This document shows positions 58 through 18,743 of a stretch of DNA of 20,000 bases, piece after piece. The notes beneath the pieces were generated by a model. That model searched no databases and had not been told where the DNA came from. It saw only the letters and a list, made by a program, of their open reading frames with translations. The first letter of the stretch is position 1; every line of letters starts with the position of its first letter. The DNA is from an uncultured virus (IMG/VR IMGVR_UViG_3300008117_000028) (lineage: Duplodnaviria; Heunggongvirae; Uroviricota; Caudoviricetes). The position numbers were made by a program, and so were the translations under genes. The stretch lies in IMG/VR virus record IMGVR_UViG_3300008117_000028, one strand, 5' to 3'.

Positions 58-82
58 AAAAAAGTCACGGTTTCGTGACTTT
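58..82 (-). terminator. Terminator-like hairpin / palindrome
   Basis: Perfect 9-bp inverted repeat AAAGTCACG (61..69) - GTTT - CGTGACTTT (74..82). It reads into a T6 run on the minus strand and lies downstream of the last tail-module gene. Confidence 0.65.
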
Positions 83-1090: not shown

Positions 1091-1298
1091 TATTTACTTT
1101 CTCTAGTTCTGCTTGTAGCGCTTCTTTCTTTAAAAAAGCATTTTCTAATTGTATATTTAATGCATCTACTACTTCTTGATTAATTGGTGTGATAGCAGAC
1201 TCTTGAATTATTAACATATTTATATTATAAATATTATTTACTACACTTTTTAAATGTTCATTTATAATAGCATTTTTTTCTGGTACTGATAGCTCCAT
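1074..1298 (-). CDS. Small helical hypothetical protein
   Basis: 74 aa amphipathic helical hairpin; TAATG coupling to the upstream gene; AAGGA upstream. Confidence 0.75.
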   Translation of the reverse strand: MELSVPEKNAIINEHLKSVVNNIYNINMLIIQESAITPINQEVVDALNIQLENAFLKKEALQAELEKVNNESGE

Positions 1299-1573
1299 TA
1301 AATAACATCCTTTGTTTCAGTTATTGCTCCCCATTTACCCAAAGGACAACTAGCGTGTGGCAATTTAGCTTTTTCTGTCATAAAACATCCACATTTTTTA
1401 CAAGTTTTTGATGCTTTAATTAATGATGGACAATTTAAACAATGATTTTCATATCTATATTTAAATGTTTCTTCATCTACTCTTCCAATTTTTGGATTTA
1501 ATAAGTCCCAAGGGCGAACTTTGTCACCAGCATTTTTTTCTTTCCAAATTTGAAAAGGTGTTTTTTCTGACAT
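1298..1573 (-). CDS. Small 6-Cys putative metal-binding protein (DUF6171-like)
   Basis: Motif R-x4-CLNC-x9-CKKCGC-x12-CPLGKW matches the recalled DUF6171 pattern. GAGGA SD upstream. Confidence 0.75.
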   Translation of the reverse strand: MSEKTPFQIWKEKNAGDKVRPWDLLNPKIGRVDEETFKYRYENHCLNCPSLIKASKTCKKCGCFMTEKAKLPHASCPLGKWGAITETKDVI

Positions 1574-1574
1574 A

Positions 1575-1823
1575 TTATTCCTCTATTGGTTTAGGGCTAA
1601 AGGTATCAGTTTCTGCATCGTACAGTGCTCCTACTGAAACTATACCGCCTTCATCTGTATATAAATTTCCAGTTACATTTTTTATAATTGGATTACTTGT
1701 AAATATTGCACCTAATCTTTCATCTGTGTGTAAAATATCTACAACTTCTCCATCAATAACAAATGCTATTTTTACTGGTGGTAGTTCTGGTCTTTGACCA
1801 GGCTCTAGTATTTCTTCTGCCAT
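1575..1823 (-). CDS. Small acidic protein, possible tail-fibre assembly chaperone
   Basis: 82 aa with AAGGAG SD. The pattern 'AFVIDGEVVDI ... VG.LYD..T..F' resembles small proteins encoded directly after phage fibre genes. Function is inferred. Confidence 0.65.
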   Translation of the reverse strand: MAEEILEPGQRPELPPVKIAFVIDGEVVDILHTDERLGAIFTSNPIIKNVTGNLYTDEGGIVSVGALYDAETDTFSPKPIEE

Positions 1824-1875: not shown

Positions 1876-4326
1876 TTATGCTGAGAAATTGTCTAATTGA
1901 TTACCTATTTTTTCAACTGCTGGAAGGCTAACTAGTCCTACAGATGTTCCTTTAGTGCCAGTATTTGTGGCAGATGTAGTATCAAAATATGTGCCTACAT
2001 ATCCTAAAGCATTTATTGTATTTCCAGTAGTAACTGCAGCTACCTTTGTAATTGTTGGATACAATAGTTCGCTGTATTCAGATCCTGCTTGTGCAGCATA
2101 AGAACTAACAACGATTGAATTTTGTAATGTTAATGTTCCAGAAGAATATGAATATATACTTAAATTTGAATTATATGTATATGCATCAGATTGTACTTCT
2201 TCTACCTCTTTCCAAGATTTATAAATTACTGCTCCTAAATATTGTCTAGTTTTATAATTATTATATGTTAATGTTGTACTTGTTTTAGTTTTCCATCTTG
2301 TTTGAGTTTCAGCAATTCTTGTTTTATATAAACTTGTAGTTGTTGCTGTACATGCTCCGCATCTTTGTCCTGGTCCAGATCCTTCTCCTGGACAATTTGA
2401 TTGTCCAGTTATATAATTTGAACATAAATAACTTGAACTTGAACTAGATAAAGTATATGTAGAAGTATATGTAGTGGTAGTAGAAGTTGAACATGATGTA
2501 CATCTTTGTCCTGGTCCAGATCCTGTTGCTGGTAATGGCGATGGACAAGAACCAGAACCAGAGACTTGTACGTTACATGAATAAGTTGTTGATGAAGTGC
2601 TAACTGTATACGAATATGTTGTAGTTGTAGATGGACATCTAACAAATCCTACGGCACATGCTGTATATCCAGCAGGTGCTCTAACGCATCCAGATGGGTC
2701 ATTAGCGCCTGGAGTTTTACATGAACCATATGTTGTAGTTGTAGATGATGTACAACCACTACAGTTTTGTCCAGCACCAGTTGGATCTGGTCTATACGTT
2801 GGGCAAGTAGCTGATCCAGTAATAGTAGATCCATTACATGGATATGTAGTGCTTCCAGTGCTTGATCTTACAAAATAAGAATATGTAGAAGAACTTGTAG
2901 AAGTTTCATTACAAGTGCTACATCTTTGACCGCTACCAGTTGGATCTGGTCTATATGAAATTCCTTCACAACAACCTTGTCCGTTACATGATGCTGGTGA
3001 ATTACATGGATAAGTTGTAGTTAAATAAGAATCTCTATAGCTATAGGCATATGAAGTTGAAACATTGCAATAACTACATTGATCACCTATTGCTGATCCG
3101 CCATAATTAGAATCATTGCAAGGACCACTATTATTATAATATGATGGACATATTGCTACTACTTCACTATAACTTTCACATGCACAAAGTTGATTTGGTC
3201 CTGTTGGATCTGGCCTTATTAATAATCCGCTACAATCTGGCTGATTCAATGCCCAATCAGATGTACATACATATTCATAAGATTCTGTACAGGATCCTGA
3301 ACAAACTGTATTTTCTCCGCCAGGCATTGCAGAGCTCCAATTTTCATATTCTGGACACGGATCTCCTGCATTTAATACTCTTACATCATTAGTACATGAA
3401 TAATTATATAAGCTAGATGTTGTTGTACATGCTGTACATCTTTTGCCTACATCAGAAATTGTATATGCAGATCCTTCAATATTAGCTGAAACATATGAAA
3501 CGGCATTACATTCTTCTTCTGTTCCAGTTTTATTACTAGTACAATTGTATGCAAGTCCTGGTTCAATTTCATAAGAGTACTCTGGTACTACTGCCCACCA
3601 AGAATTTGCAGATGCAACCCATACAGCAAGTCCTAGTCCACCACCTGATGTATCTATTGATGTATTTTGATTAGAAGAATTTAAATCAACACTTTGTAGG
3701 GGATAACCACTTCCATTACTATTGTTTATTGCTTTTCCACCACTTACACTCCATGAACTTGTATTTCTAGCATAGGAGCTATAAATAAATCCTCCGCTTG
3801 CAATACCTAATCCGCTTGTAGTTGTTCTATTGTTAAAGTTATCTTCTATACCTTGCATGGTAGCAGTCAGTGGATCACTGTAATAATAATATTTAGTTAT
3901 ACCATCTGTTCCAGTAACTTCATCTCTTGAATAAAAAATGTTTGGTGGTGGAGTAGCATCTGTTTGGTCTATTGTATATGAAGATGTTGATTTAGTATTT
4001 CCATAAATTACCTCTTCGCTATATCCATCTCCTGGCAAAGTTTCATCTGTGGTATAAAATATTTTATTTACAATTGAATCATAATTGCTATATGTTCCTG
4101 GTGATTTGGTAATGCTTGTTCCAACTCTACCCGTTCCTGATAATGTAGGTCTAGTTAATTGTGTTGGTGAGTCAACTGTTCCAAATGTTTTTGTCCACTC
4201 AGTTGGAGATATTTTTACATATATATTTTTTACTTTTTTCCAGGTACTTTGTGTTACTTTAACATATATATATTTTACAGCTTTCCATGTACTTGGAGTA
4301 ACCTTTAAATATGTTTTTGCTGTCAT
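1876..4326 (-). CDS. Putative tail fibre / receptor-binding protein: lectin-like beta-sandwich with a large Cys-rich insertion
   Basis: 816 aa. Three N-terminal Y(L/V)K(V/I)xxxxW repeats, an Ig-like segment (PTLSGTGRVGTSIT), then a 'DNFNNR...GLAVWV...WWAV' half-domain, a 398-aa Cys-rich block and a 'GTSVGLV...LDNFSA' half-domain. It is the last large gene of the tail module. Confidence 0.75.
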   Translation of the reverse strand: MTAKTYLKVTPSTWKAVKYIYVKVTQSTWKKVKNIYVKISPTEWTKTFGTVDSPTQLTRPTLSGTGRVGTSITKSPGTYSNYDSIVNKIFYTTDETLPGDGYSEEVIYGNTKSTSSYTIDQTDATPPPNIFYSRDEVTGTDGITKYYYYSDPLTATMQGIEDNFNNRTTTSGLGIASGGFIYSSYARNTSSWSVSGGKAINNSNGSGYPLQSVDLNSSNQNTSIDTSGGGLGLAVWVASANSWWAVVPEYSYEIEPGLAYNCTSNKTGTEEECNAVSYVSANIEGSAYTISDVGKRCTACTTTSSLYNYSCTNDVRVLNAGDPCPEYENWSSAMPGGENTVCSGSCTESYEYVCTSDWALNQPDCSGLLIRPDPTGPNQLCACESYSEVVAICPSYYNNSGPCNDSNYGGSAIGDQCSYCNVSTSYAYSYRDSYLTTTYPCNSPASCNGQGCCEGISYRPDPTGSGQRCSTCNETSTSSSTYSYFVRSSTGSTTYPCNGSTITGSATCPTYRPDPTGAGQNCSGCTSSTTTTYGSCKTPGANDPSGCVRAPAGYTACAVGFVRCPSTTTTYSYTVSTSSTTYSCNVQVSGSGSCPSPLPATGSGPGQRCTSCSTSTTTTYTSTYTLSSSSSSYLCSNYITGQSNCPGEGSGPGQRCGACTATTTSLYKTRIAETQTRWKTKTSTTLTYNNYKTRQYLGAVIYKSWKEVEEVQSDAYTYNSNLSIYSYSSGTLTLQNSIVVSSYAAQAGSEYSELLYPTITKVAAVTTGNTINALGYVGTYFDTTSATNTGTKGTSVGLVSLPAVEKIGNQLDNFSA
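2350..3543 (-). repeat. Nine degenerate Cys modules (coding repeats)
   Basis: Exact 24-bp direct repeat catctttgtcctggtccagatcct at 2360..2383 and 2501..2524 (141 bp apart). Exact 21-bp repeat accagttggatctggtctata at 2776..2796 and 2935..2955 (159 bp apart). RPDPTG occurs 3 times and GQRC 3 times. Confidence 0.85.
4183..4311 (-). repeat. Three 15-aa tandem repeats at the fibre N-terminus
   Basis: YLKVTPSTWKAVKYI / YVKVTQSTWKKVKNI / YVKISPTEWTKTF; 45-bp periodicity. Confidence 0.8.
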
Positions 4327-8241: not shown

Positions 8242-9897
8242 CTATAAAGTTCTACAGGATAACTCCGTCTCCAATCCTTCAGAATATCTATGCTTTACCT
8301 CTGTAACAATGAAGCTTTCTGTTCCTGCTAGTCCTTGATAAGTATATTTAATTGAAACAATGTCTCCTACAGAAATTAAAGGGTTTCCAAATATTTTCAT
8401 ATTAACTATTTTACCTCTGTTAATAACATTGTTTTTAATCCAATTTGCTAAAGACTTTACATCTGCCTCATTTTGTAACCAAAATGATTTAAATGTAACT
8501 GGTTCTTTTGTAACATAATCATTTAGTTCATCTGTACTATATATTAGTTCTCCAGAGTCTCCTAGATCATTACCCCATAAAACAAATGCCGCTTCAGCCC
8601 CGTTTGATAAAGGAATAGTGGTAGATGTATTATTCATAACAAATGCTTGAGATCCAAAGTTAGAAACTTTTTGCCCAAGTATTTTAGCAAAAGGATTTAT
8701 TCCTGTACTCCATTTTACTGGATATGATGGTCTCTTAGAAAAAGAAACATCTGTTTTTACAATTTCTCTTATTACGGTTCCAAACTCATCAACAGCAGTA
8801 GCCCTTTTATTACCTGAAGCAATCTCATCTTCTCCGTAATTTGCCATGTAAGATAAATCTCCGTATGAAGTATTTATTAAATCATTACTAAATTGTCCTT
8901 GATATATATTTAATTCTAAAAATCTGTCATCATATTGATAATCTTTTAAAGTATTTGCATATGCATAATCAAATGCAACTTGACCTCTTGAACAGACTAA
9001 TCCAATTTTTTTACTTGGTGCTAAAATAACAGATTTAACTTGAACAGCATTATTAATTTTATATGTTGTATCTGTGGCTGATATTCTGTAGCCATTTATA
9101 AAAGCATCAATAAATACTGTTTGATTATCAATCTTAACTTTAATATCAATATTATATGTTCTTCCTCCATAAATACCCTCTATAGTAGATTCAGTTCTTG
9201 TACCTATTTCTTTTAATGGAATTTTATTGCTTCCAACCCATTTTTCTATTCTTACTGATTTTTTATCTAATACAGCTGAAGCTGAAGTAGTTGATTCTAA
9301 AATTAAGTAATAGCCACTAGTTCCAGAGCTATTTAAAAAGAATCCTATCCCACCAGACTGTTTGGTATTATCTAAAATATTATCCATTAATATACTAGTT
9401 CCAAAAGAAAAGTATCCAGTATTATATGAGTTTCCATTAACAGAAGATACTGTTTTAACTGTAGGTACCTCTATTGAATCAAAATCTCTATAAAATAAAG
9501 CAGATTGTTTTTTTGCATATTGAGTTTCGGTTACTGCTAGTTGTAAATAAGATTTGCTGACTTTAAAATCTTGCCTTGTTGGAGAAACCGTTTGTCCTCC
9601 ATAATTTGTTAAAGTGCTAAATCTTTTTTCCCAACGACCTCTTGGATCAAACACTCCATTTAAAGATGGTATAACAACTGCTTTATAAGAAGTTCCACTT
9701 AATAAATTACTTATTGTAATTGGTTGAGATTGTGTATCAAAATTTTGTATTGTCGTTTCATATTGATCAAATTCTCTAATAATAAGAACATTATAATTAG
9801 TAGGATCGCTTAAACCTGGATATGTTTCTGCAGTAATAACTGCTCCATTTTCAGATGGATTTATAACTAAATCAAGTATTGCTGTATACGTACTCAT
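8242..9897 (-). CDS. Minor tail protein carrying the C-terminal part of a baseplate hub (Tal-like), plus FN3-like and lectin-like domains
   Basis: Start placed at ATG 9897 (TAATG overlap with the upstream stop; AGGAG at 9908..9912), giving 551 aa. C-terminal 'GNPLISVGDIVSI...FIVTEVKHRY..GLETEL' is the characteristic final hub beta-domain. Confidence 0.7.
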   Translation of the reverse strand: MSTYTAILDLVINPSENGAVITAETYPGLSDPTNYNVLIIREFDQYETTIQNFDTQSQPITISNLLSGTSYKAVVIPSLNGVFDPRGRWEKRFSTLTNYGGQTVSPTRQDFKVSKSYLQLAVTETQYAKKQSALFYRDFDSIEVPTVKTVSSVNGNSYNTGYFSFGTSILMDNILDNTKQSGGIGFFLNSSGTSGYYLILESTTSASAVLDKKSVRIEKWVGSNKIPLKEIGTRTESTIEGIYGGRTYNIDIKVKIDNQTVFIDAFINGYRISATDTTYKINNAVQVKSVILAPSKKIGLVCSRGQVAFDYAYANTLKDYQYDDRFLELNIYQGQFSNDLINTSYGDLSYMANYGEDEIASGNKRATAVDEFGTVIREIVKTDVSFSKRPSYPVKWSTGINPFAKILGQKVSNFGSQAFVMNNTSTTIPLSNGAEAAFVLWGNDLGDSGELIYSTDELNDYVTKEPVTFKSFWLQNEADVKSLANWIKNNVINRGKIVNMKIFGNPLISVGDIVSIKYTYQGLAGTESFIVTEVKHRYSEGLETELSCRTL

Positions 9898-11891
9898 TAT
9901 AATAAAACTCCTGTCCATGCATACTGAGTTGATGGAACACCACTAGAATTATGTGCTGCGGCTGTAGTACCTAAAGCTCCTCTAGTTTTAATTCTATATC
10001 TACCATTTGGTTTAATATAAATATCCGACGCTATATTTTCTGATCCAGGTTTTGCAAAATTTGTATATTTATTTAAATCAGCAGCATTTTCAATCCATAT
10101 GTTAATAAATGTTAAGTCGTTTGAATCTTTTGGAACATATTGATATCCCATTGCATCATACTCAATTATTTCAGAATCTACTAAAAAGTATCCATTAAAA
10201 TTAAATCCTGATTGAAATTTACTATACTTATCTAATGTTTCAAATTTAATTGCTAGATATTGATTACCAGAAGCGCTTAGAGGTTCCAGAAGTCCTCCTG
10301 CTACTAAAAATTTAGTAGGTGATTGCCAAAGAGGTCCAGATGTTCCTAAATATGAAGTAGATGTTGGAGTAGACCAAATTACTTTAACTTGATTTGCAGA
10401 GGCTATTTCTTTTTGTGAAAAATCAACTATGTTTGGCAAAATACTAGATTCTGCTTCGTAATAAAAATTCCAATCTTTTGTTGTACGACCATACATGTAA
10501 TTTCTGCTATAAAATTGTAAAATATCATTTTCATCAACAATAGCATTCATTTGTATATCTCTACATATTTCCTGGATATACTCCCAGACTGTTTTTGATC
10601 CATCTGTCCAAAAATAATTAATTAAGGGAACAGAAGAGTCTGTTTCTGATGTAAGATTAAATTTATAATTTGTATATCCTACAGAATCTAAAAGTCTACG
10701 TATTACTGCTGTAGCTGGGTAAAATTCACATAGAACATCTGGGCATATCACTTCCATTAAATACTTTGCCGAATCTAATGCATTAACAGAAACCTCTCCA
10801 TATGCACCGATATTCCATTCATCTACATAAAATTGACCTTGATATATTTTGTCATATTTTTCTAAACCTTCAGTTATTGCTCCGTCAGCATGATATATTT
10901 TAAAATAAGGAGTTAATTTTGCATTCTTTACCATATAAGTTAAAGAAGAATTTAAGGCAACAGATCTATTGTAGGAAGCATATTGCAAAGATGTTTGATT
11001 GTATTTAATTAAATTTAAAGATATATTATTTGATGTTACCTTGCCAACTGGCAATAAATCTTCTGAGCTTGATGATGCCTCTTTGCTTATATCAAATGAC
11101 TCAACATCGTCAGATATATCTTTTACCCATCTTGCAGAAATTTCAATAAGACCAATAATTCTATCTGTTCCTGCGCTTGGCGTTGTGATATTAATTGATT
11201 TTATAGATACTGGGTTAGCAAATGAATATGGTTCTGATAATTGATTTGCTGACCATGTAGTTCCATTATAGTATAAATTTACTATTCCATTTGCTGGGGT
11301 AGATAAAGAACTTGCAATTGTTTCTTGAGTATTATCTGATTTAGTTATTTTAATTGTATATGAAGATGGCAAGCTATGTGTCTTTTCAAATTTAATAACT
11401 ATTTTATTTGTTAGGGCAAATTTTGTACCAGATGTTAAATAATTAACTGTTACATCTACTCCAGTATTTTGTGGAGTAACCCAATATTTATAATAGGTGC
11501 TTGCTCCTGGATAATATATTCTTGGCTGGCTTTCTGGATAGCTGACTGATCTATATGAAGAAAAACTATTTTTAGGAACATCTGTTCCAGATCCGTTGCT
11601 AACTTTTTCTAATATAAAATATTTAATTCCTGAATTTTCTGGTCTAAATGGTTTTACTATAGAGTCTACAGGAAATAATTTTTTATATGGATTTGGTCTA
11701 CTTGCTGGCCATACCTGTTGATCTGCTGCGTTAACAATTTGTGAAGTATATAAAGAGTCTGATATATTATTTGTAACAGATATTCCATCTAACATAGTAT
11801 TCATATTATATTCAATATAACACCCAGATTTAATAATAACGCTGGCTTTATTATAAAATATATTTTTTAATGCAGTAGAAGAAGTTATCAT
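9897..11891 (-). CDS. Baseplate hub / Tal-like minor tail protein (N-terminal part)
   Basis: 664 aa, second gene after the TMP. Hub-like motifs 'GQFYVDEW...VNALD..KYL' and 'TVWEYIQEICR......VDENDILQF'. Confidence 0.7.
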   Translation of the reverse strand: MITSSTALKNIFYNKASVIIKSGCYIEYNMNTMLDGISVTNNISDSLYTSQIVNAADQQVWPASRPNPYKKLFPVDSIVKPFRPENSGIKYFILEKVSNGSGTDVPKNSFSSYRSVSYPESQPRIYYPGASTYYKYWVTPQNTGVDVTVNYLTSGTKFALTNKIVIKFEKTHSLPSSYTIKITKSDNTQETIASSLSTPANGIVNLYYNGTTWSANQLSEPYSFANPVSIKSINITTPSAGTDRIIGLIEISARWVKDISDDVESFDISKEASSSSEDLLPVGKVTSNNISLNLIKYNQTSLQYASYNRSVALNSSLTYMVKNAKLTPYFKIYHADGAITEGLEKYDKIYQGQFYVDEWNIGAYGEVSVNALDSAKYLMEVICPDVLCEFYPATAVIRRLLDSVGYTNYKFNLTSETDSSVPLINYFWTDGSKTVWEYIQEICRDIQMNAIVDENDILQFYSRNYMYGRTTKDWNFYYEAESSILPNIVDFSQKEIASANQVKVIWSTPTSTSYLGTSGPLWQSPTKFLVAGGLLEPLSASGNQYLAIKFETLDKYSKFQSGFNFNGYFLVDSEIIEYDAMGYQYVPKDSNDLTFINIWIENAADLNKYTNFAKPGSENIASDIYIKPNGRYRIKTRGALGTTAAAHNSSGVPSTQYAWTGVLL

Positions 11892-11892
11892 G

Positions 11893-12366
11893 TTAAACCT
11901 CTACCATTGTTAAGGAAACGTTCCAAAATGGCTGTAGGCCTCTTTTTAGTACGATAAAATTACATTCTCCAAACATTACACTGTATTGTTCGTAATTAAC
12001 TGATTCCTGATTTGTTCCATCTTTTGCAAAATTTATCCTAATATTAAAAGAAGATTTTCCTTCTGTGCTATTATAGAATGTCCTTAAGTCTTCTGCTCCC
12101 CAGGCTCCATCTACAGTTAATGTTCTGTATGATGGCAACATATCCCATGATAAATTAAAAGTTTTTTTATCTGCAACGAAGTATTTTCTTAATGTACCAT
12201 TTCCCATTCTTGTTTGTTTTTCTATTCTTTCTGGAGTGATATCAAACTGGGATCTATTATGTTCTGTTACTTTATTATATTTTAATGTGCCATCGCCGCC
12301 ATTAGTGGTTGAATCGTAACCTTGTATTTGAAGAATAGATCCTCTTGGAACAATTAATGCGCTCAT
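11893..12366 (-). CDS. Distal tail protein (Dit-like)
   Basis: 157 aa directly after the TMP with ATGA overlap. Tail-tube-like pattern 'RMGNGTLRKYFVADKKTFNLSW...WNVSLTMVEV'. Confidence 0.75.
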   Translation of the reverse strand: MSALIVPRGSILQIQGYDSTTNGGDGTLKYNKVTEHNRSQFDITPERIEKQTRMGNGTLRKYFVADKKTFNLSWDMLPSYRTLTVDGAWGAEDLRTFYNSTEGKSSFNIRINFAKDGTNQESVNYEQYSVMFGECNFIVLKRGLQPFWNVSLTMVEV

Positions 12367-15300
12367 ACAAATAACCTATTTCTTCCTTCTTTAGTTTCAA
12401 TCATTCTCATTCTAGCTTCAATTGCTTTTGCAACATCGTCTGGCGATAGGTTGCTTCCATTAAGTGTAACATTAATATTATATAATGAATTAGATGTAGA
12501 GGCTAATCCAGCTTGATTCATATTAACTCTTCCACCCATGGACATTCTTGGAATATTGTATTTTGTTGCTAAGCCACCCATTGCCATTTTATTAATTCTA
12601 TCTAGTGTTGGGGTTCCTATAGATTTAACTGCTGCTGCTCTAATTACATATTCACCATTAGAAAGCATTGCTGGAATAGAATCGGATGTTCCTGTACCTG
12701 GACCAGATACATATCCTGCAGAAGAATATCTCTTAACCATTCCGCCTAATGCAAGTGTGGCTACGCCAACATTGCTCTTAGAAGTTGTATTTTTATTTGT
12801 ATCAAATTCATATATTAATCCGTCAACAGTGCTTACTGCATAGGTTTTACCGCCAAAACTAAATAGCCTATATGACTTACCAACGCCTGCTGCTGATGCT
12901 GAATTTCTATCATTAAATGCTTTTCCTGCTGCTGCATTTAATGTTTTAGCATCATAAACCTTAGCTGTACCAGTAGTATTTAATCCACCAGCTGCAGTCT
13001 TTCCAGATACAGAATCATATGATTTATCTGATGCTGTTTTTCCTGCATCTAGATTAACTCCTTCATTTTTAATTGCAGCTAAAATATCTTTTAGATATTG
13101 ATTTGATTTTCCAATTGCATTTACAACAAGGTTATCTGATCCTTTTTGTAGTGCTTTTAATAAAGCAGCGCCTTGTGTTGTATTAGGATCAATATCTGTT
13201 CTTCTAGTTTCTCTATCTTCACGAACTAAGTTTCCTGCTGATCCTGTTACACCTAGATCTGCTAAGTACTTCTTTCCGCCTGGAGTTTGCTCTAACTGTC
13301 TAATTAAATCATTAAGCCTCTTCATGGCTTCTTTTTCATCTATATTACCTAATGAGAATTCTTTGTATACTCCCTGAATTTGTTGATATGTAGAAGCATA
13401 TGGAGATTCTTTTGGTTTATTATTTGCAGCAGCATTTGATGCTGCTGTTGATTTTTTATTTAATACATCTATTTGAGCTTGTAATGCATCTATCTTTGCC
13501 TGTACTGCTGCATCTATAGCATCTTCGGCTGCCTTTAATTGTTGCTGTCCTACAAGTCTTTGAATATTTATTTGAGCCTGTGCAGCAGATGCCATGTCTC
13601 CAGAAGCAAGAGCTATTTGATAATTTAATTGCTCTTGTTGAATTTGTAATTTAACATCTTCAATTTGTTGCTGGTCTCTTAAGGCTTTCTTTCTTGCTTC
13701 GCCTTCTTTTTTAATTTGATCAATTTGTTTATTTTTTAAATCAATTTGATCTTGTAAATTTTGTACAGTTATTTTACCTGCAGATTGTTGCTTTTTATTA
13801 AATGCATCAATATCTTTTGCAAGTTTGCCAGTCATAATATTGCTTTGAGCTTCTTTACTTGATACATCAAGCAATTTATTATAATAAGCACCTATTGCTT
13901 CTGATGCTGCTGCAAAATCTTTTAGTTGTTGATTTGTTAATCCATTTAAATCTCTTTGAACTCCAGCAAGGGATAGTCTCCATTTTGCCAAAGCTGTTCC
14001 TATGTCATCAGATGTGCTTAATATTGCAGCAAGCATAGGGTTTGTTTTAGCTATTTCATTTATTTGCTGTTCTGTTAACTTAACATTAGCCTGATTAGAT
14101 TTTCCTATTGCATCGAATTGTTCTTTTAATGCAGCTGATTTATCTTTAGCATTACCAATATAGTCTCCCATAGATGTAAATATTTGTAGCATTCCTGCTG
14201 CTCTATCTTTTGCGTCTTTAAACCTTGACATAGACTTGAGCATAGAATCTATAGCAGTTTTTGCATCTGTTATTCCAGCTAAACCTTGTCCGCCTAATAC
14301 TACTTGTATAAATCCAGCCTTACCTGATTCTGCAAGCAATGCTGCAATTTTAGCATTTGCTTTTGCAGCTGAGTCTCCTGCTGCAACAAATTGAGCTTTT
14401 AATCCTTCAGCAACTTGACTTAATTTATCTGATGGTGTTTGATTAAATAGCTTAACAAGTTCTGGATGTGTAGATTTAACTTTTTCTCTTAAATCTGCAA
14501 ATTGTTTAATTGTTAATGTTAATCCAGAAATTCCAGCTGAATTCATTTGAGCATGTAATAATTCTGCAGTTGCTCTTGTATCTTCAATATTTTTAATAAC
14601 CTGCTTTAATTCAGAATCAAAATCTTTAATTGGCTTTACTCCGCCAGAAAATGCCAATCTATTTATTCTTGAAAATTCTTCTACTCTTGATTTTAATTTC
14701 ATTAATCCAGCGGTTACGCCAATTACTGCCGCACCAGCCATAACATATGGATTTGATATTATTGGACCTAATCTTGAAAAGATTCCTGCAGAGGCCATTC
14801 CTTGTTTGTTTACTGCAGATATTTTTTGAGTAAGTGATGTGAATACTGCAGGAGCAAGAATAGAACCAGCAATTGATCCCATTGTGCCACCAAATTGTCC
14901 ACCTAATGTTGCTCCGCCCATCATGGCGCCCATATATCCTAAGTTTTGTCCAATACCACCAAGCATTGAAGGTTTAACTGGTCCACCGTCTTGATATCCT
15001 GGAACAAGTCCTCCAGAATTCATTCTGAGTCTTCCGCCAAATAATTTAGTTGTTAGAGGTAATAGATTTGACCATCTACCTCCACCATATCTTGCAGCTT
15101 GTCTTGCTGAATACTCTTCTGATCCTCTATTTATTGAGTATGGTACAGATTGTCCTGTTCTAACCCTTACTCTTTGTCTTGATACATTTGTTACATAAGC
15201 TTTCTTTAATGCGTCAGGTCTGAATTCAGAAGTTTTTGGATCAACAATAAATTCATTAATTAAGCCTCTTGTAATTGCTTGATGAGTTGCTCCTTGATTA

Positions 15301-18300
15301 AATGCTTTTGTGGTTTTAGCTAATTCTTCTTGATAGAATAAATTAAAATCTTTTGTTGAAGAAACACCTCTAGCTTTTGCGCTTGCAACAGCAATTCTTT
15401 TTATTAAATCAGATTGATAATCTTTACGGTCAAAGAAAGAAGCAACAGCAGGGATACCTATTGCTTTATAGAATTTTGACACCCTTTGTGCATCAGAATT
15501 TGTAAGTGGAATTATGTCTCCACGTAAATGCCTTGGAAGCTTCATATTTTCTGCTATTCTGATTGATCTTTCTGCACTACTTCCATCCCAAGCCATAGCC
15601 ATTAAATTATTTATATTTCTAGGTATCGCTGCAGTTGTTCCCTGACCAAATCCTTGGAATGTTAAGCTGGTCAATCTCTTTGGATCTTGTCCTGCTGCAA
15701 CTAATGCCTTTTGAATTGCTGGGTCTTCTAACAATTGATAAGATCTCATTAAGTGTGCTGATTGTAAATCAGATAGTCCGCCATCATTAAAGTTTGGTCC
15801 GCCTTTTCCATAACCCTCATTGATCGCAGTCAATAAAGGTAAGTTAGCAGCAGTAGCTTCTTTATTTACAACAAACTCTCCAGGAGTAAGAACTGCTGGG
15901 ACGCTGTCTGTATTTCCTGTTCCTGGAACTATGCTTCCACGATTCATTCTCTTTGGGTTAGTAGTTTCTATAGAATATCCGCCACCCCAAGTCTTTACAC
16001 CAGTTGCTCTAGCAATTGCATCAAGCATTCGTTTTACTGGTCTTCCTGATCTAAACAATTCTCTTAAATTAGATTTACCAGATTTATCAACTATAGGTTG
16101 ATTTAGTAATGGAACTGCTGTTAAGTTTGCAGTTCTACCCATTTGCTGTGCTGTTTGTGTTGTAGTCTGTATCATTGCTTGTTCTAATTGTGCATTGATA
16201 CGAATAATTTCTGCTTGTGCTTGATCTACACGCATTTTACCAGCCATTGTTTGTCTTACAATTGCTTGAGATTCAAGTACTGCATTATCTATTACTCTAG
16301 TCATTGCTGGTAATATTGTAGAATAGCTTGTCAAAAACTCTTGACTTACTGTTCCTGTTGTTGAAATTTCTTTCTTTAATGTTGCAACTTCTTGCTTAGT
16401 TTGCATAGAAAGAGCTGCCATTAATGAGTGCCACTTAGCTGCTTCTCCAGCAACAATACCTGTTGATACTCCACCTTGTGTTGTCAATCCAGGAATATCT
16501 GGCATATTTTGATATGTAAAGATTTGTGGTGCCTGTCCTATTTTTTGATTAACAAGTATTGGATTAGGAGTAACAGAGTGAATTGTTTGTGCGTCTCTTT
16601 GAGACTTTGTCATTCTTCCTCTTGGCCTAGAATGAGCAGCAGCTCTTTCATCTATTTTACCAATAAGAGGATGCGCTGGATTTGCAATTCTTTCTTGTTT
16701 ACTTAATACTAATGGTGTTCCGCCTACTGTTGATACTCCTGGATTTGTTGCTATAATTGCATTATTTGCATCCGCTGCAAGTTTTGTATATGAAGCAGAT
16801 AGTCTAGTTATTGCTTGATTTAATATATCTGCAGCTTTTGCATCGCTATAGAATGTTGTTTCTGCAAGTGCACCTGCTTTATTAGCAGCTAATATTTCTG
16901 GTGTGAGTAATCTCCATCCTTCTCCACCTTTAAATAGTGCTCTAAAATGTGATACACCTTTTATGATATAGCCAAAGAAGTTTCCAAGTACACCAGTTAA
17001 CATAATAAGTGGACCAGCTACAGCCGTTAGTCCGCCAAATAAACTTAATATAGATTTAATTGGTCCTGGTAGTTTATTAACAAATTGTAAAATTCCATCA
17101 ACCATATTAATTAAATGAGTATTAATAGTTAAAAATTGTTCGCCAACGCCAGCTAGATCTGCTTTTAATCCTTCTAATGCTCTACGGTATTTACCAGAAG
17201 CAGATTCTGTAACCATACTTAATTCTCGACCTGCAATATTAGCCAGGTCTGCAGCGCTTGCATTCATTAAATCCATTACTTGTAGTGTCTGACTTCCTTG
17301 TTTTCCAAGATTTTCAAACAAAGCATTCATTCTTGAAAATTGGAATTTACCAAACAATTGTTCAATAGCCTGTTGTTTTTGTAAAGGATTTAATGTATCT
17401 AATGCTGCCTGTAAAGCCAATATAGTTTTAGTTGTGTCTCCTGCATTTTTTTGAACTATACCCTTTAAATCTATTCCAAATCCTGCAAACATTTCTGTTG
17501 CAACTTTTGTTGGATTAATTAAAGAAGCAAGGCCTGACTTTAATGCGTTAGCTCCTTCTGATGCGCTAATTCCACCTTCACGCATAGCTGTAAGATAAAG
17601 TGCAAGATCTTGTACGTCTCCACCAAGTCCTTTAATAATTGGACCAGCTTTAGGAATTGCTTCTACCAAGTCATTAAGAGTTGTTGATGTTTGGTTTTCA
17701 ACTGCGTTTAAAAAGTTAATTGATTCTGCTAATTGATCTGTATTTGATTTAAATGCAGATTGAATTGCAAGAGTTGCTTTCATTGCATCTTGACGATCTA
17801 CTTCACCAAGTACAGCAAGACGTGTTGTTTCTTTTATAGATCCAAGTAATTCATTTCCTTGTTTACCAGTTGCAGCAATATCAGCACCTAGAGCTAATGT
17901 TTCTTTAAATGATGATCCATATGCTTTAGATAATTCAGTTGCAGTTGCTGTTACGTCTTGTCTTACTTTTGCTAATTCTGCTGCTGAAGTTGCAGCAAGT
18001 CCGCCGTATACCTTAGTTAATCTTGTTAATTCTTGATCTGCTGCTCTAAATGCATCTGCTGATGCTTTACCAAATGCTGCTAACGGTATTGTTAAGCCTA
18101 CTGTTAACTGACGACCTGCCCACTGTGTATTTTTACCCCAGTTAATTAATGAATTAGCACCTTCTTGAACTACACGATTCATGATCTGTAATTCTTGTCT
18201 TGCTAATGCTGTTTTACTCTTTACTTTATCAAGTCCTGTTGGAATATGCACATTATATTGCATTAATCCTTCAGCATTTTTACCTAATGGCTGGAGTACT

Positions 18301-18743
18301 GCGTTCTGTAGCTGCACCTGTTGTTGTGCTAATTGCCTGATTAGTCCGCCGTTAGTTTTTAAATGACTTTGATATACTTGAAAAAACTGTCTTAATTTAA
18401 TTTGGCCCTTATCTAATTGAGAGCCAAACTTATCTACATCAGATGTTAAATTAACAAAATGTGTAGAAAATTGTCCAGTGCTTCGAAGTGTCTCGGCAAA
18501 AGAACGATTCATTACAGCAACTTGTGCTGATAAGTTTTTATTTAAAGCAAACTGACCTTGAAGTGACACTATATCATCTCCTTTTGCATTTATTCCTAGG
18601 GCCTTTCTTCGTATATCATCAAATGTAGGACCTTCTGTTTGTTCTTCTTCATTTAAGTTAACACCTTGAAGTGATGCTAAGAATCTTCTTTTTTCATCTT
18701 CAGTTTTTTGCATTGCCTTAAATGTTTGTATTAACTCTGGCAT
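12363..18743 (-). CDS. Tape measure protein (N-terminally fused to the chaperone T segment in this sequence)
   Basis: 2,126-aa Ala/Gln/Leu-rich helical ORF with a TP901-type TMP core (LAVLGEVD...GISASEGANALKSGLASLINPT...LFGK). It lies between the chaperone and the Dit-like gene and has a C-terminal GPGTGTSDSIPAMLSNGEYV motif. Confidence 0.9.
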   Translation of the reverse strand: MPELIQTFKAMQKTEDEKRRFLASLQGVNLNEEEQTEGPTFDDIRRKALGINAKGDDIVSLQGQFALNKNLSAQVAVMNRSFAETLRSTGQFSTHFVNLTSDVDKFGSQLDKGQIKLRQFFQVYQSHLKTNGGLIRQLAQQQVQLQNAVLQPLGKNAEGLMQYNVHIPTGLDKVKSKTALARQELQIMNRVVQEGANSLINWGKNTQWAGRQLTVGLTIPLAAFGKASADAFRAADQELTRLTKVYGGLAATSAAELAKVRQDVTATATELSKAYGSSFKETLALGADIAATGKQGNELLGSIKETTRLAVLGEVDRQDAMKATLAIQSAFKSNTDQLAESINFLNAVENQTSTTLNDLVEAIPKAGPIIKGLGGDVQDLALYLTAMREGGISASEGANALKSGLASLINPTKVATEMFAGFGIDLKGIVQKNAGDTTKTILALQAALDTLNPLQKQQAIEQLFGKFQFSRMNALFENLGKQGSQTLQVMDLMNASAADLANIAGRELSMVTESASGKYRRALEGLKADLAGVGEQFLTINTHLINMVDGILQFVNKLPGPIKSILSLFGGLTAVAGPLIMLTGVLGNFFGYIIKGVSHFRALFKGGEGWRLLTPEILAANKAGALAETTFYSDAKAADILNQAITRLSASYTKLAADANNAIIATNPGVSTVGGTPLVLSKQERIANPAHPLIGKIDERAAAHSRPRGRMTKSQRDAQTIHSVTPNPILVNQKIGQAPQIFTYQNMPDIPGLTTQGGVSTGIVAGEAAKWHSLMAALSMQTKQEVATLKKEISTTGTVSQEFLTSYSTILPAMTRVIDNAVLESQAIVRQTMAGKMRVDQAQAEIIRINAQLEQAMIQTTTQTAQQMGRTANLTAVPLLNQPIVDKSGKSNLRELFRSGRPVKRMLDAIARATGVKTWGGGYSIETTNPKRMNRGSIVPGTGNTDSVPAVLTPGEFVVNKEATAANLPLLTAINEGYGKGGPNFNDGGLSDLQSAHLMRSYQLLEDPAIQKALVAAGQDPKRLTSLTFQGFGQGTTAAIPRNINNLMAMAWDGSSAERSIRIAENMKLPRHLRGDIIPLTNSDAQRVSKFYKAIGIPAVASFFDRKDYQSDLIKRIAVASAKARGVSSTKDFNLFYQEELAKTTKAFNQGATHQAITRGLINEFIVDPKTSEFRPDALKKAYVTNVSRQRVRVRTGQSVPYSINRGSEEYSARQAARYGGGRWSNLLPLTTKLFGGRLRMNSGGLVPGYQDGGPVKPSMLGGIGQNLGYMGAMMGGATLGGQFGGTMGSIAGSILAPAVFTSLTQKISAVNKQGMASAGIFSRLGPIISNPYVMAGAAVIGVTAGLMKLKSRVEEFSRINRLAFSGGVKPIKDFDSELKQVIKNIEDTRATAELLHAQMNSAGISGLTLTIKQFADLREKVKSTHPELVKLFNQTPSDKLSQVAEGLKAQFVAAGDSAAKANAKIAALLAESGKAGFIQVVLGGQGLAGITDAKTAIDSMLKSMSRFKDAKDRAAGMLQIFTSMGDYIGNAKDKSAALKEQFDAIGKSNQANVKLTEQQINEIAKTNPMLAAILSTSDDIGTALAKWRLSLAGVQRDLNGLTNQQLKDFAAASEAIGAYYNKLLDVSSKEAQSNIMTGKLAKDIDAFNKKQQSAGKITVQNLQDQIDLKNKQIDQIKKEGEARKKALRDQQQIEDVKLQIQQEQLNYQIALASGDMASAAQAQINIQRLVGQQQLKAAEDAIDAAVQAKIDALQAQIDVLNKKSTAASNAAANNKPKESPYASTYQQIQGVYKEFSLGNIDEKEAMKRLNDLIRQLEQTPGGKKYLADLGVTGSAGNLVREDRETRRTDIDPNTTQGAALLKALQKGSDNLVVNAIGKSNQYLKDILAAIKNEGVNLDAGKTASDKSYDSVSGKTAAGGLNTTGTAKVYDAKTLNAAAGKAFNDRNSASAAGVGKSYRLFSFGGKTYAVSTVDGLIYEFDTNKNTTSKSNVGVATLALGGMVKRYSSAGYVSGPGTGTSDSIPAMLSNGEYVIRAAAVKSIGTPTLDRINKMAMGGLATKYNIPRMSMGGRVNMNQAGLASTSNSLYNINVTLNGSNLSPDDVAKAIEARMRMIETKEGRNRLFV

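Follow-up and report, generated by a model that had tools for sequence, protein, structure and literature searches.

We have analyzed a 20,000-nucleotide (nt) stretch of DNA from an uncultured member of the Caudoviricetes (IMG/VR record IMGVR_UViG_3300008117_000028), referred to below as the window, and within it the open reading frame (ORF) located at 1876..4326 on the minus strand, whose product of 816 amino acids (aa) we call P0001; window coordinates are used throughout. The window corresponds to the tail end of a siphovirus structural module, carried on the minus strand, with a tape measure protein of 2126 aa (PF10145, phrog_10030), several proteins matching PHROG "tail" families and a protein of 666 aa. 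The ORF coding for P0001 is the last large gene of this tail module, a position that fits the role of receptor-binding protein suggested for it in a sequence-only reading of the same stretch. The nearest record, G001 (113,072 bp, estimated to be complete), has 96% of the sampled 31-letter words in common with the window and codes for an identical P0001. The parts that can be distinguished in the gene are the following:

1876..4326, minus strand: whole gene, coding for the 816-aa distal tail fibre or putative receptor-binding protein; an ORF located behind the tape measure and the PHROG "tail" proteins, with no further large gene of the module beyond it, and in the same place in nine related loci
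4177..4326, minus strand: N-terminal anchor (aa 1–50), three tandem 15-residue repeats xYVKVxxxxWKxVKx; delimited by the repeat units, with a presumed role in attachment
3859..4176, minus strand: spacer domain (aa 51–156), 95–98% identical in P0003-5, P0015 and P0017 and ca. 50% in the other clade
3571..3858, minus strand: split head domain, first half (aa 157–252, EDNFNNR...WWAVVPEYSY); hidden Markov model (HMM) of small relatives matching aa 160–252 with E 1.8e-24, and 17/17 small relatives by phmmer
2188..3570, minus strand: inserted cassette (aa 253–713, 461 aa), located between the two HMM matches and exchanged as a unit among relatives
3427..3543, minus strand: module 1 (aa 262–300), 4 cysteines (Cys); this and the following modules delimited by module alignment
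3289..3396, minus strand: module 2 (aa 311–346), 4 Cys, Cx3C end; the least variable (0.21 bits)
3178..3267, minus strand: module 3 (aa 354–383), 4 Cys, RPDPTG, CxC end
3067..3150, minus strand: module 4 (aa 393–420), 4 Cys
2911..3006, minus strand: module 5 (aa 441–472), 6 Cys including CC, RPDPTG; the most variable (1.18 bits)
2752..2838, minus strand: module 6 (aa 497–525), 4 Cys, RPDPTG; also seen as DNA repeats
2635..2721, minus strand: module 7 (aa 536–564), 4 Cys, divergent, no CxxC; 0.96 bits
2491..2577, minus strand: module 8 (aa 584–612), 4 Cys, GSGPGQRCTSC; also seen as DNA repeats
2350..2424, minus strand: module 9 (aa 635–659), 4 Cys, GSGPGQRCGAC; also seen as DNA repeats
2188..2349, minus strand: Cys-free tail of the cassette (aa 660–713), with YKTR, WKTK, YKTR and YKSW spaced by ca. 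11–13 residues; placed by motif positions, its strands possibly pairing with the modules
1879..2187, minus strand: split head domain, second half (aa 714–816, ...TKGTSVGLVSLP...LDNFSA); HMM of small relatives matching aa 716–816 with E 1.4e-8, contiguous with the first half in the ORF of locus L092

The anchor region also contains a 45-nt DNA repeat (4189–4278, 76% identity), and W-K repeats of a like kind open most of the relatives. The spacer domain (aa 51–156) has no sequence relative in the PDB at E<=10.

The cysteine array

The sequence-only reading had placed all 38 Cys of the protein in 2350..3543 and distributed them in nine modules with even numbers of Cys, and both the translation and the alignment of the modules bear this out. 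Every one of the 38 falls within aa 262–659 (window 3541–3543 down to 2350–2352), and the chance of all of them landing in 398 of the 816 residues is 1.4e-12. The nine groups (with 4, 4, 4, 4, 6, 4, 4, 4 and 4 Cys) can be aligned with each other and follow the consensus (S/T)xTTYxC-x9-12-C(P)-xn-GxG(Q/D)RC-x1-3-C, module 7 being a divergent version. The first two Cys of each module are separated by 9–12 residues and the last two (C3 and C4) have a spacing of 1, 2 or 3; module 2 ends in Cx3C and module 3 in CxC, module 7 has no close pair, and in module 5 there is an additional local pair that includes CC. Compared to the form put forward before (YxC...QRCxxC), this consensus is less strict, with an exact QRCxxC in three modules and CxxC in 6 of the 9. 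All the motifs that had been named are located where they had been reported, i.e., RPDPTG (aa 371, 459, and 512), GSGPG (602 and 649), TTTTYSY (567) and YAYSY (426) within the array, YKTR (667 and 691), WKTK (678) and YKSW (702) closing it, and DNF (162 and 812), WWAV (243) and LDNFSA (811–816) in the flanks; the span assigned to the whole feature (2180..3600) corresponds to aa 243–716. Of the 121 linker residues that separate the modules, 91 (75%) are Thr, Ser or Tyr, with Gly and Pro nearly absent, and the loops inside the modules contain 16% Gly, 10% Pro and 9% Asn. There is no His in the whole protein.

The modules can also be detected as diverged DNA repeats with identities of 61–80%, comprising five "GQRCxxC" copies and longer pieces of modules 5, 6, 8, and 9. 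The fact that they are still recognizable at this level indicates that the array grew by internal duplication. Cys accounts for 9.5% of the residues of the block compared to a mean of 0.99% over the 149 ORFs of G001, and elsewhere in the virion-gene region of this genome 35 further ORFs have between 0 and 5 Cys each, with none in the 2099-aa tape measure, so that the clustering is exceptional within the phage. In the window, the tape measure (12363–18743, minus strand) is likewise free of Cys, and so are the neighboring tail proteins of 666, 355, and 269 aa.

The nine-module array is therefore confirmed as an observation. The biased composition of the whole protein (15% Ser, 15% Thr, and 9% Gly) is the one feature that would be expected if the array were an artefact of low complexity, of a misread frame or of an ORF that is open by chance. 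However, full-length homologues with 60–83% identity keep 38 of the 38 Cys, the identical protein is found on 22 contigs and the gene order is conserved, and we give this explanation hardly any credit. No known Cys-rich repeat family matched aa 262–659 in Pfam (E<=10) or NCBIfam (E<=1); EGF, TNFR, hevein/CBM18, furin-like, VSP and DnaJ zinc finger repeats were among those looked for. The only match of the cassette in the PDB, 9fia_B9, was discarded as an artefact of Ser-rich low complexity in which not a single Cys was aligned.

The split head domain and its inserted cassette

The sequences at both sides of the array were modeled by HMMs built from 20 small relatives only. Both match P0001 and nothing else in G001, and at 80 other viral loci 83 ORFs contain the first half and the same 83 contain the second. 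The initial protein set gave 66 proteins with both halves and 21 of 87 with only the first; these 21 include obvious full-length homologues, indicating that the HMM of the second half has limited sensitivity. In three distinct proteins (the ORFs of loci L090, L092, and L093) the first half continues directly into the second, with only "SDG" in the place of the 463 residues found in P0001, and therefore the flanks can be taken as one domain and the Cys block as an insertion in it. These three ORFs, of 686–688 aa, contain 45 Cys, mostly in a C-terminal extension composed of small Cys-rich pieces and long poly-Pro runs. That the block interrupts a single domain had been proposed before, and the unity of the flanks set beforehand as the point on which to judge it; at the sequence level the HMM matches at both sides, the co-occurrence in 83/83 ORFs and the three uninterrupted relatives all speak for it.

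The block had also been described as grafted into the protein. It is not an isolated case, since such inserts characterize a large phage family. Of the Cys of the family, 1620 of 1674 are located within the insert in the first protein set and 1144 of 1302 at the viral loci (38 of 38 in P0001). There are 35 relatives of similar length in public collections and 65 clusters at 50% identity, all of them under the name "hypothetical protein" with one exception, called "mucin-2." The part most widely common among relatives is the N-terminal 250 residues, and many relatives of 270–650 aa consist of little beyond a D-x-F-N-R...W-W-A segment, a Cys-rich middle of variable length and a K-G-T-S-V-G-I-I-K...D-N-F-S end. 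The signatures of both halves (D-x-F-N-R...G-x-G-x-A-x-W-V...W-W-A for the first and ...K-G-T-S-V-G...D-N-F-S for the second) are present in P0001. This family, a split head domain with a Cys-rich insert, is only partly covered by phrog_25859. No relative of P0001 was found among 50,697 phage records and no paralogue in the same phage. Prophage copies were not found in genome contigs either, bar one contig of a metagenome-assembled genome (MAG) labeled as Bacteroidetes that is probably a binned phage contig. The cassette was not found in other contexts among longer (1429–4080 aa) or shorter (30–447 aa) proteins, which is weak evidence.

As for the fold of the head domain, the description "lectin-like beta-sandwich" found no backing in any of the searches (Pfam, NCBIfam, PDB profiles and hhalign were all blank). 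Pfam had no match to P0001 and its parts (E<=10), and the same was true of 39 relatives (E<=0.01) and of the 20 small members of alignment A3 (E<=10); nor was there a sequence match between P0001 and families of the ConA-like clan (Laminin_G_3, DUF1080, GH16, and others). Searches of P0001 and its parts against PHROG and NCBIfam gave no match, and hhalign of A3 gave probabilities of 0.04% with the Laminin_G_3 protein of this same phage and of 0.25% with gp23 of the mycobacteriophage TM4. In PDB profile searches A3 had no match at E<=10 and alignment A2 had only FN3 matches, which come from domains inserted in distant relatives. The ESM Atlas had no usable match for P0001; for the relative P0091 it returned unnamed viral clusters and a weak lead, SO2946-like_C, at 0.89.

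One of the small relatives, P0086 (411 aa), carries at the same insertion site a segment in which there is a Cys about every sixth residue (CNAYQCNATQC...). The spacing of these Cys has a mirror symmetry of 0.94, reached by 0 of 2000 shuffles. If P0001, which belongs to the same super-family, were built in the same way, its insert would be an out-and-back hairpin stalk with two arms and matched Cys pairs pinning each rung. However, the mirror score of P0001 is 0.14 (p 0.84), the segment that would return (aa 660–713) has no Cys at all and the repeats are direct, both in the protein and in the DNA. A mirror ladder was thus rejected for P0001 and we consider it very improbable.

The variation of the cassette among relatives bears on what it does. 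In 13 homologues with the same type of cassette the 38 Cys are invariant, while the other cassette positions vary at 0.61–0.65 bits, and close relatives of P0001 have between 36 and 48 Cys, as anticipated by the idea of a conserved scaffold with variable number and sequence of modules. Cys were gained by twos in P0007, P0005, and P0014, and module 7 is the site of the extra pairs and of an extra module in these three proteins. P0003, P0004, and P0005 are 98–99% identical to each other in the N-terminal part and only 77–79% in the cassette. P0015 and P0017, compared to P0001, maintain identities of 80–100% over the anchor, the spacer and both halves of the head domain and drop to 22–30% in the cassette. 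The opposite situation is found in P0006 and P0008, with 52% identity to P0001 in the anchor and 83–87% in the cassette. From these comparisons the whole cassette would appear to behave as an exchangeable specificity module. The phylogenies are less favorable to this view, given that the trees of the three partitions all keep the clade formed by P0001, P0003, P0004, and P0005. Beyond whole-cassette replacement, exchange between clades is thus suggested only by unequal branch lengths, i.e., in the cassette an inter-clade branch that is much shorter (0.07 vs. 0.55) and terminal branches that are longer (median of 0.10 vs. 0.011). The variation is unlikely to stem from a diversity-generating retroelement: no reverse transcriptase was detected at E<=1e-5 among the 135 of the 149 ORFs of G001 that were scanned, a search that did not extend to template repeats.

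Unit length and chemistry of the modules

The four motifs that close the cassette had been interpreted as return strands pairing with the first modules. In P0001, a single short linker of 7–10 aa comes before each of modules 1–4 and 7, and one of double length (19–24 aa) before each of modules 5, 6, 8, and 9; the Cys-free tail contains the four aromatic-x-x-basic motifs ca. 12 residues apart. Cassette types that have only short linkers have tails of 107–120 aa, which amounts to 11.9–12.1 aa per four Cys. When eight cassette types are compared, the length of the Cys span plus the tail is 46.6 aa per four Cys and has a coefficient of variation (CV) of only 3%. The tail alone ranges from 4.9 to 12.1 aa per module (CV 35%; Pearson r −0.89, p 0.003), its length trading off with that of the linkers. 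In addition, the extra module of P0005 and P0014 is accompanied by an extra "...IRYSYSVRQ" strand segment. The simplest reading of these lengths would be that one structural unit consists of a knob and two strands, the second strand being either local or supplied by the tail. Two points weaken this rule: by Spearman correlation it is only marginal (rho −0.69, p 0.058, eight cassette types), and the eight types are not independent, because three of them are variants of one type. The constant unit length gives indirect support to the return strands, and the pairing itself is what we infer from the lengths.

The Cys could form disulfides or bind a metal, and the numbers in the family offer a way to compare both possibilities. 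Even counts were found in 53 of 59 Cys-containing cluster representatives (p 2e-10) and, for the insert, in 57 of 61 distinct viral-locus proteins (p 5e-13); of the four with an odd count, three are even when the whole protein is considered. Among the even counts, multiples of four were not preferred (25 vs. 28, p 0.78, and 35 vs. 22, p 0.11), and the 38 Cys of P0001 are not one of them. Even counts without a preference for multiples of four favor disulfide pairs over sites of four Cys with a metal, short of proving them. The C3–C4 spacing of 1–3, the CC pair, the absence of His and the gains by twos would also fit disulfide-rich modules better than zinc knuckles.

The alternative is that each module of four Cys binds one Zn (or Fe), in the manner of a zinc ribbon or knuckle, which would leave the fibre, the insertion and the swappable cassette unchanged. 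Ribbons and knuckles have two CxxC-type knuckles per site, in which His can take the place of Cys; a module of P0001 has one CxxC at most. Several observations speak for the metal and against disulfides. The protein folds in a reducing cytoplasm, where a metal-binding array could fold without an oxidase, and a scan of 135 of the 149 ORFs of G001 detected no Erv- or DsbA-like oxidase (E<=1e-5). Each module has four Cys, as well as a "CPxxG" turn after the second of them and usually a CxxC at the end, two turns that resemble zinc knuckles; most of the module-type cassettes have 36, 40, 44, or 48 Cys (with 38 and 42 as exceptions); and the DUF6171 protein encoded downstream of the fibre (see below) has two motifs of the CxxC type. 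However, there is no excess of multiples of four over the family or in P0001 itself, module 7 has no close pair, the first and second Cys of a module, separated by 9–12 residues, are unlike those of a knuckle, and no zinc-finger family was matched in Pfam even at E<=10. On balance we regard metal binding as a possible but doubtful alternative, with disulfides about twice as likely.

There are precedents of disulfides in virions of tailed phages, such as the Agrobacterium phage Milano (PMC10491603) and the tail tube protein gp39 of a siphovirus (PMC13576161), according to the available parts of both sources. These proteins are made in the cytoplasm and have functional disulfides, as is proposed here for P0001. 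Unlike the 38-Cys intrachain array of the fibre, those described in the same parts of these sources are a few cross-links between subunits in capsid, neck, and tube.

G001 also codes for a thioredoxin (89269–89571) with a WCRPC site and for a KatG-like catalase-peroxidase of 680 aa (95249–97291; PF00141, E 5e-70), the latter an unusual phage cargo for which a link to thiol oxidation would be speculation.

Companion genes, host and role of the fibre

Two small genes directly follow the fibre gene in the window:

1575..1823, minus strand: 82-aa companion gene, with relatives in 70 of 80 loci and no Pfam or PHROG match
1298..1573, minus strand: 91-aa DUF6171 gene (PF19668) with six conserved Cys (CxxC...CKxCGC...CP), with relatives in 75 of 80 loci

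The loci counted here (L024–L103) were obtained via small members of the family and the companions were searched by single-pass phmmer (E<=1e-3); the relatives are found 0–290 nt downstream of the family gene. Both companions are better conserved than the fibre, since P0001 itself finds only 50 of the 80 loci. At the close loci, a gene like the one of 82 aa is found behind the fibre in the eight that extend past it, and one like that of 91 aa in the seven that extend far enough. PF19668 was matched by the 12 proteins sampled (that of the window and 11 relatives), seven of them above the cut-off; the protein of the window scores 21.8 with a cut-off of 27. Exactly six Cys, in the pattern C-x2-C...C-K-x-C-G-C...C-P, are present in 51 of 54 distinct DUF6171 members. 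The four HMMs (two halves of the head domain and two companions) match G001 once each, all match the lone MAG contig that carries a family member, and none has a match in the tail regions examined of TM4 or of the Streptomyces phage NootNoot. In the freshwater cyanophage S-SRM01 (Synechococcus) a DUF6171-like gene is located directly behind a gene annotated as "gp37-gp38 adhesin tip complex," which codes for a product of 362 aa with 11 Cys. It is a reasonable hypothesis that the companions help to fold or assemble Cys-rich fibre tips. Two facts count against such a role, i.e., that DUF6171-like genes are found in 37 isolated phages without a relative of P0001, and that in the Stenotrophomonas phage Moby the gene is not near the fibre genes. 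No mention of DUF6171 was found in the full-text literature searched. In S-SRM01 (L104, 2390–5336) we also noted a tryptophan halogenase gene between the tail fibre and the adhesin-tip genes.

Regarding the phage itself, G001 has a GC content of 33% and codes for WhiB, DNA polymerase III alpha, RecA, many 2-oxoglutarate (2OG)-Fe(II) oxygenases, glycosyltransferases, and the thioredoxin and peroxidase mentioned above. WhiB has been used as a marker of actinophages (available parts of PMC10202952 and PMC10914622). The portal is 58% identical to those of Streptomyces siphoviruses of ca. 127–132 kb. In one Streptomyces phage, NootNoot, the last gene of the module codes for a "minor tail protein" of 2000 aa and follows a homologue of the 355-aa tail protein of the window. 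Here, its position is occupied by the 666-aa protein and P0001; the former matches weakly the N-terminus of the NootNoot protein (E 0.001), and P0001 has no similarity to it. In the nine related loci, the gene like that of 666 aa precedes the fibre in six and the fibres have 18–44 Cys, and 11 of 30 neighbors scanned of small family members have PHROG "tail" matches. All the words of the gene were present in 18 sequencing runs from 11 studies, 11 of the runs labeled as lake or fresh water and seven as "fungus metagenome," labels that are a habitat hint only, since any of these runs, according to their flags, might be where the DNA came from. The phage is probably a freshwater siphovirus of ca. 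113 kb with an actinobacterium as host; speaking against this host, the one cultured freshwater host named in the available part of PMC10202952 has a GC content of 46.5%, far above that of the phage.

We favor, with moderate confidence, that P0001 is a distal tail fibre or receptor-binding protein of a freshwater actinophage, in which nine disulfide-knob modules form an exchangeable specificity cassette. The grounds for it are the place of the gene in the tail module, the interruption of the head domain, the array of modules, the invariance and parity of the Cys, the swapping of cassettes and the gene trio, and it would imply that the protein is present in the virion and binds a receptor, that the Cys form disulfides, that the strands pair and that the neighbors act as helpers. 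From N to C terminus, the protein would consist of the three-repeat anchor, the spacer domain and a head domain of ca. 200 aa with the 461-aa cassette in one loop. The cassette would be made of nine tandem units of ca. 47 aa, each with a module of 25–39 aa, rich in Gly, Pro, and Asn, in which loops are held by four invariant Cys (the knob), and Thr/Ser/Tyr linkers that resemble strands. Each module would need one further strand without Cys, adjacent in the case of modules 5, 6, 8, and 9 (in their double-length linkers) and borrowed by the others from the tail of 54 aa, rich in Lys, Arg, and aromatic residues (YKTR, WKTK, YKTR, and YKSW), which would also return the chain to where the head domain resumes. 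Under oxidizing conditions, at the latest in the lake water, the Cys would pair as ca. 19 disulfides, giving a rigid and protease-resistant binding surface rich in Tyr, Ser, and Gly, and the cassette as a whole would act as the exchangeable determinant of specificity. The 82-aa protein and the six-Cys DUF6171 protein would probably help to fold or assemble it. The interpretation given in the sequence-only reading is partly supported: its split domain, its conserved scaffold with variable modules and the position expected of a receptor binder hold, while its branched beta-ribbon of stalks and knobs is a putative geometry.

It could also be that the cassette is a passive shaft, spacer or shield, rigid or glycosylated, and that another protein binds the host. 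There are other candidates for this binding, namely the 666-aa protein and the Mtd_N, FN3 and Laminin_G_3 proteins encoded elsewhere in the genome. The Ser/Thr-rich linkers could be glycosylated: they are 75% Thr/Ser/Tyr as described above, the publicly named relative is a "mucin-2," G001 has at least five glycosyltransferases and 2 of 30 neighbors of small family members are glycosyltransferases (L033 and L067). However, the replacement of the whole cassette over an unchanged scaffold is the behavior of a specificity determinant, and so is its faster change with respect to the N-terminal part in P0003-5; no other gene of the tail module comes after it, and the small relatives, located behind fibre genes, are a head domain with a Cys insert and little else. 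A passive cassette seems to us quite unlikely. A much broader reading of the receptor-binding fibre, put forward here as a long shot of about the same standing or a little better, is that freshwater actinophages might carry a three-gene kit to make disulfide-rich adhesins in a reducing cell. The head domain would accept plug-in units of four Cys, each a knob plus two strands, that could be added, lost and swapped in a combinatorial, antibody-like way, and the DUF6171 and 82-aa helpers would oxidize, shuffle or protect the Cys until release. Such a kit may be likened to poxviruses, which run their own cytoplasmic disulfide pathway.

Judged by analogy, the closest systems in function would be the carbohydrate-binding module (CBM)-like domains of the mycobacteriophage Douge and the adhesin tips of T-even phages, and in design the secreted arrays of disulfide modules and the bovine ultralong third complementarity-determining region of the antibody heavy chain (CDR-H3). 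The gp37-gp38 tips of T-even phages share with P0001 a conserved scaffold with exchangeable variable segments for host range and small helper genes beside the fibre gene. The variable parts of gp38 are short loops between Gly-rich motifs, while P0001 uses arrays of four-Cys modules, and there is no sequence relation between them. Like P0001, wheat germ agglutinin and hevein, the TNF receptor, proteins of the EGF/laminin type and the variant-specific surface proteins (VSP) of Giardia are strings of small Cys-rich modules with CxxC. In such secreted arrays the modules have 25–45 aa and 4–8 Cys with little hydrophobic core, the Cys of the CxxC are paired with different partners and the result is a rigid extracellular binding surface. 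However, they are made via an oxidizing compartment, and the modules of P0001 match no such Pfam model at E<=10, alternate with Thr/Ser/Tyr strands and are nested within another domain. The bovine CDR-H3, to which the sequence-only reading had compared the array, is a disulfide mini-domain with variable number and sequence of Cys, held on paired beta strands that emerge from a beta-sandwich, and its likeness to P0001 is an analogy only. It has one knob on one stalk, whereas P0001 has nine modules in series, some of which might take their partner strands from the distant Cys-free tail. Among phages of Actinobacteria, the central fibre protein and BppU of Douge (PDB 8zdo) and the C-terminal domain of TM4 gp23 (PDB 9n6a) are, like P0001, distal siphovirus tail proteins that end in compact domains. 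The CBM-like domains of Douge bind cell-wall glycans and are taken as receptor binders (available part of PMC13033339). Unlike P0001, neither the Douge proteins nor TM4 gp23 have a Cys-rich insert in the descriptions available in part, and they have no sequence or profile similarity to it. A published description of fibres like these was not found in the full-text literature searched, supplements not included.

Receptor-binding proteins decide which bacteria a phage kills, and those directed to the abundant and mostly uncultured freshwater Actinobacteria are essentially unknown. P0001 would provide a modular binding surface, with a constant head domain and a plug-in array of tiny Cys-stapled units that can be exchanged wholesale. 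If the Cys do form disulfides, the question is how 19 of them are made correctly in a protein produced in the cytoplasm, for which two candidate helper genes can be named, one of them from the uncharacterized family DUF6171. Engineered binders could also be built on this design, used as a small and rigid scaffold.

Some other features of the region deserve mention. The sole strong terminator-like hairpin in the first 7.5 kb is found at 82..61 (minus strand, nine pairs and then a run of T), beyond the last of the small genes. The tail genes, the fibre and the five small genes that come after it therefore look like a single transcription unit. A scan for promoters was at chance level (39 promoter-like sites vs. 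40.2 expected). One metatranscriptome contig of 151 nt matches 3846–3996 and is indistinguishable from DNA, so it is no sign of transcription. In G001, three more fibre-like proteins are encoded upstream of the portal and outside the tail module (12280–15890 and 21557–23335), one of 760 aa with Mtd_N, one of 438 aa with FN3 and one of 592 aa with Laminin_G_3. Among the 2OG-Fe(II) oxygenases of the same genome, eight are paralogues that belong to the prolyl-hydroxylase type (PF13640; 15955–21524, 1813–2460, and 62132–63088), six of them clustered just upstream of the Laminin_G_3 protein and the portal, and the fibre modules carry RPDPTG. Finally, the ORFs at 8242–9918 and 9897–11891 of the window (minus strand, 558 and 664 aa) match the C- and N-terminal parts, respectively, of phrog_10359, a minor tail protein of 1081 aa, and look like one gene that has been split or two genes that are fused in other phages.

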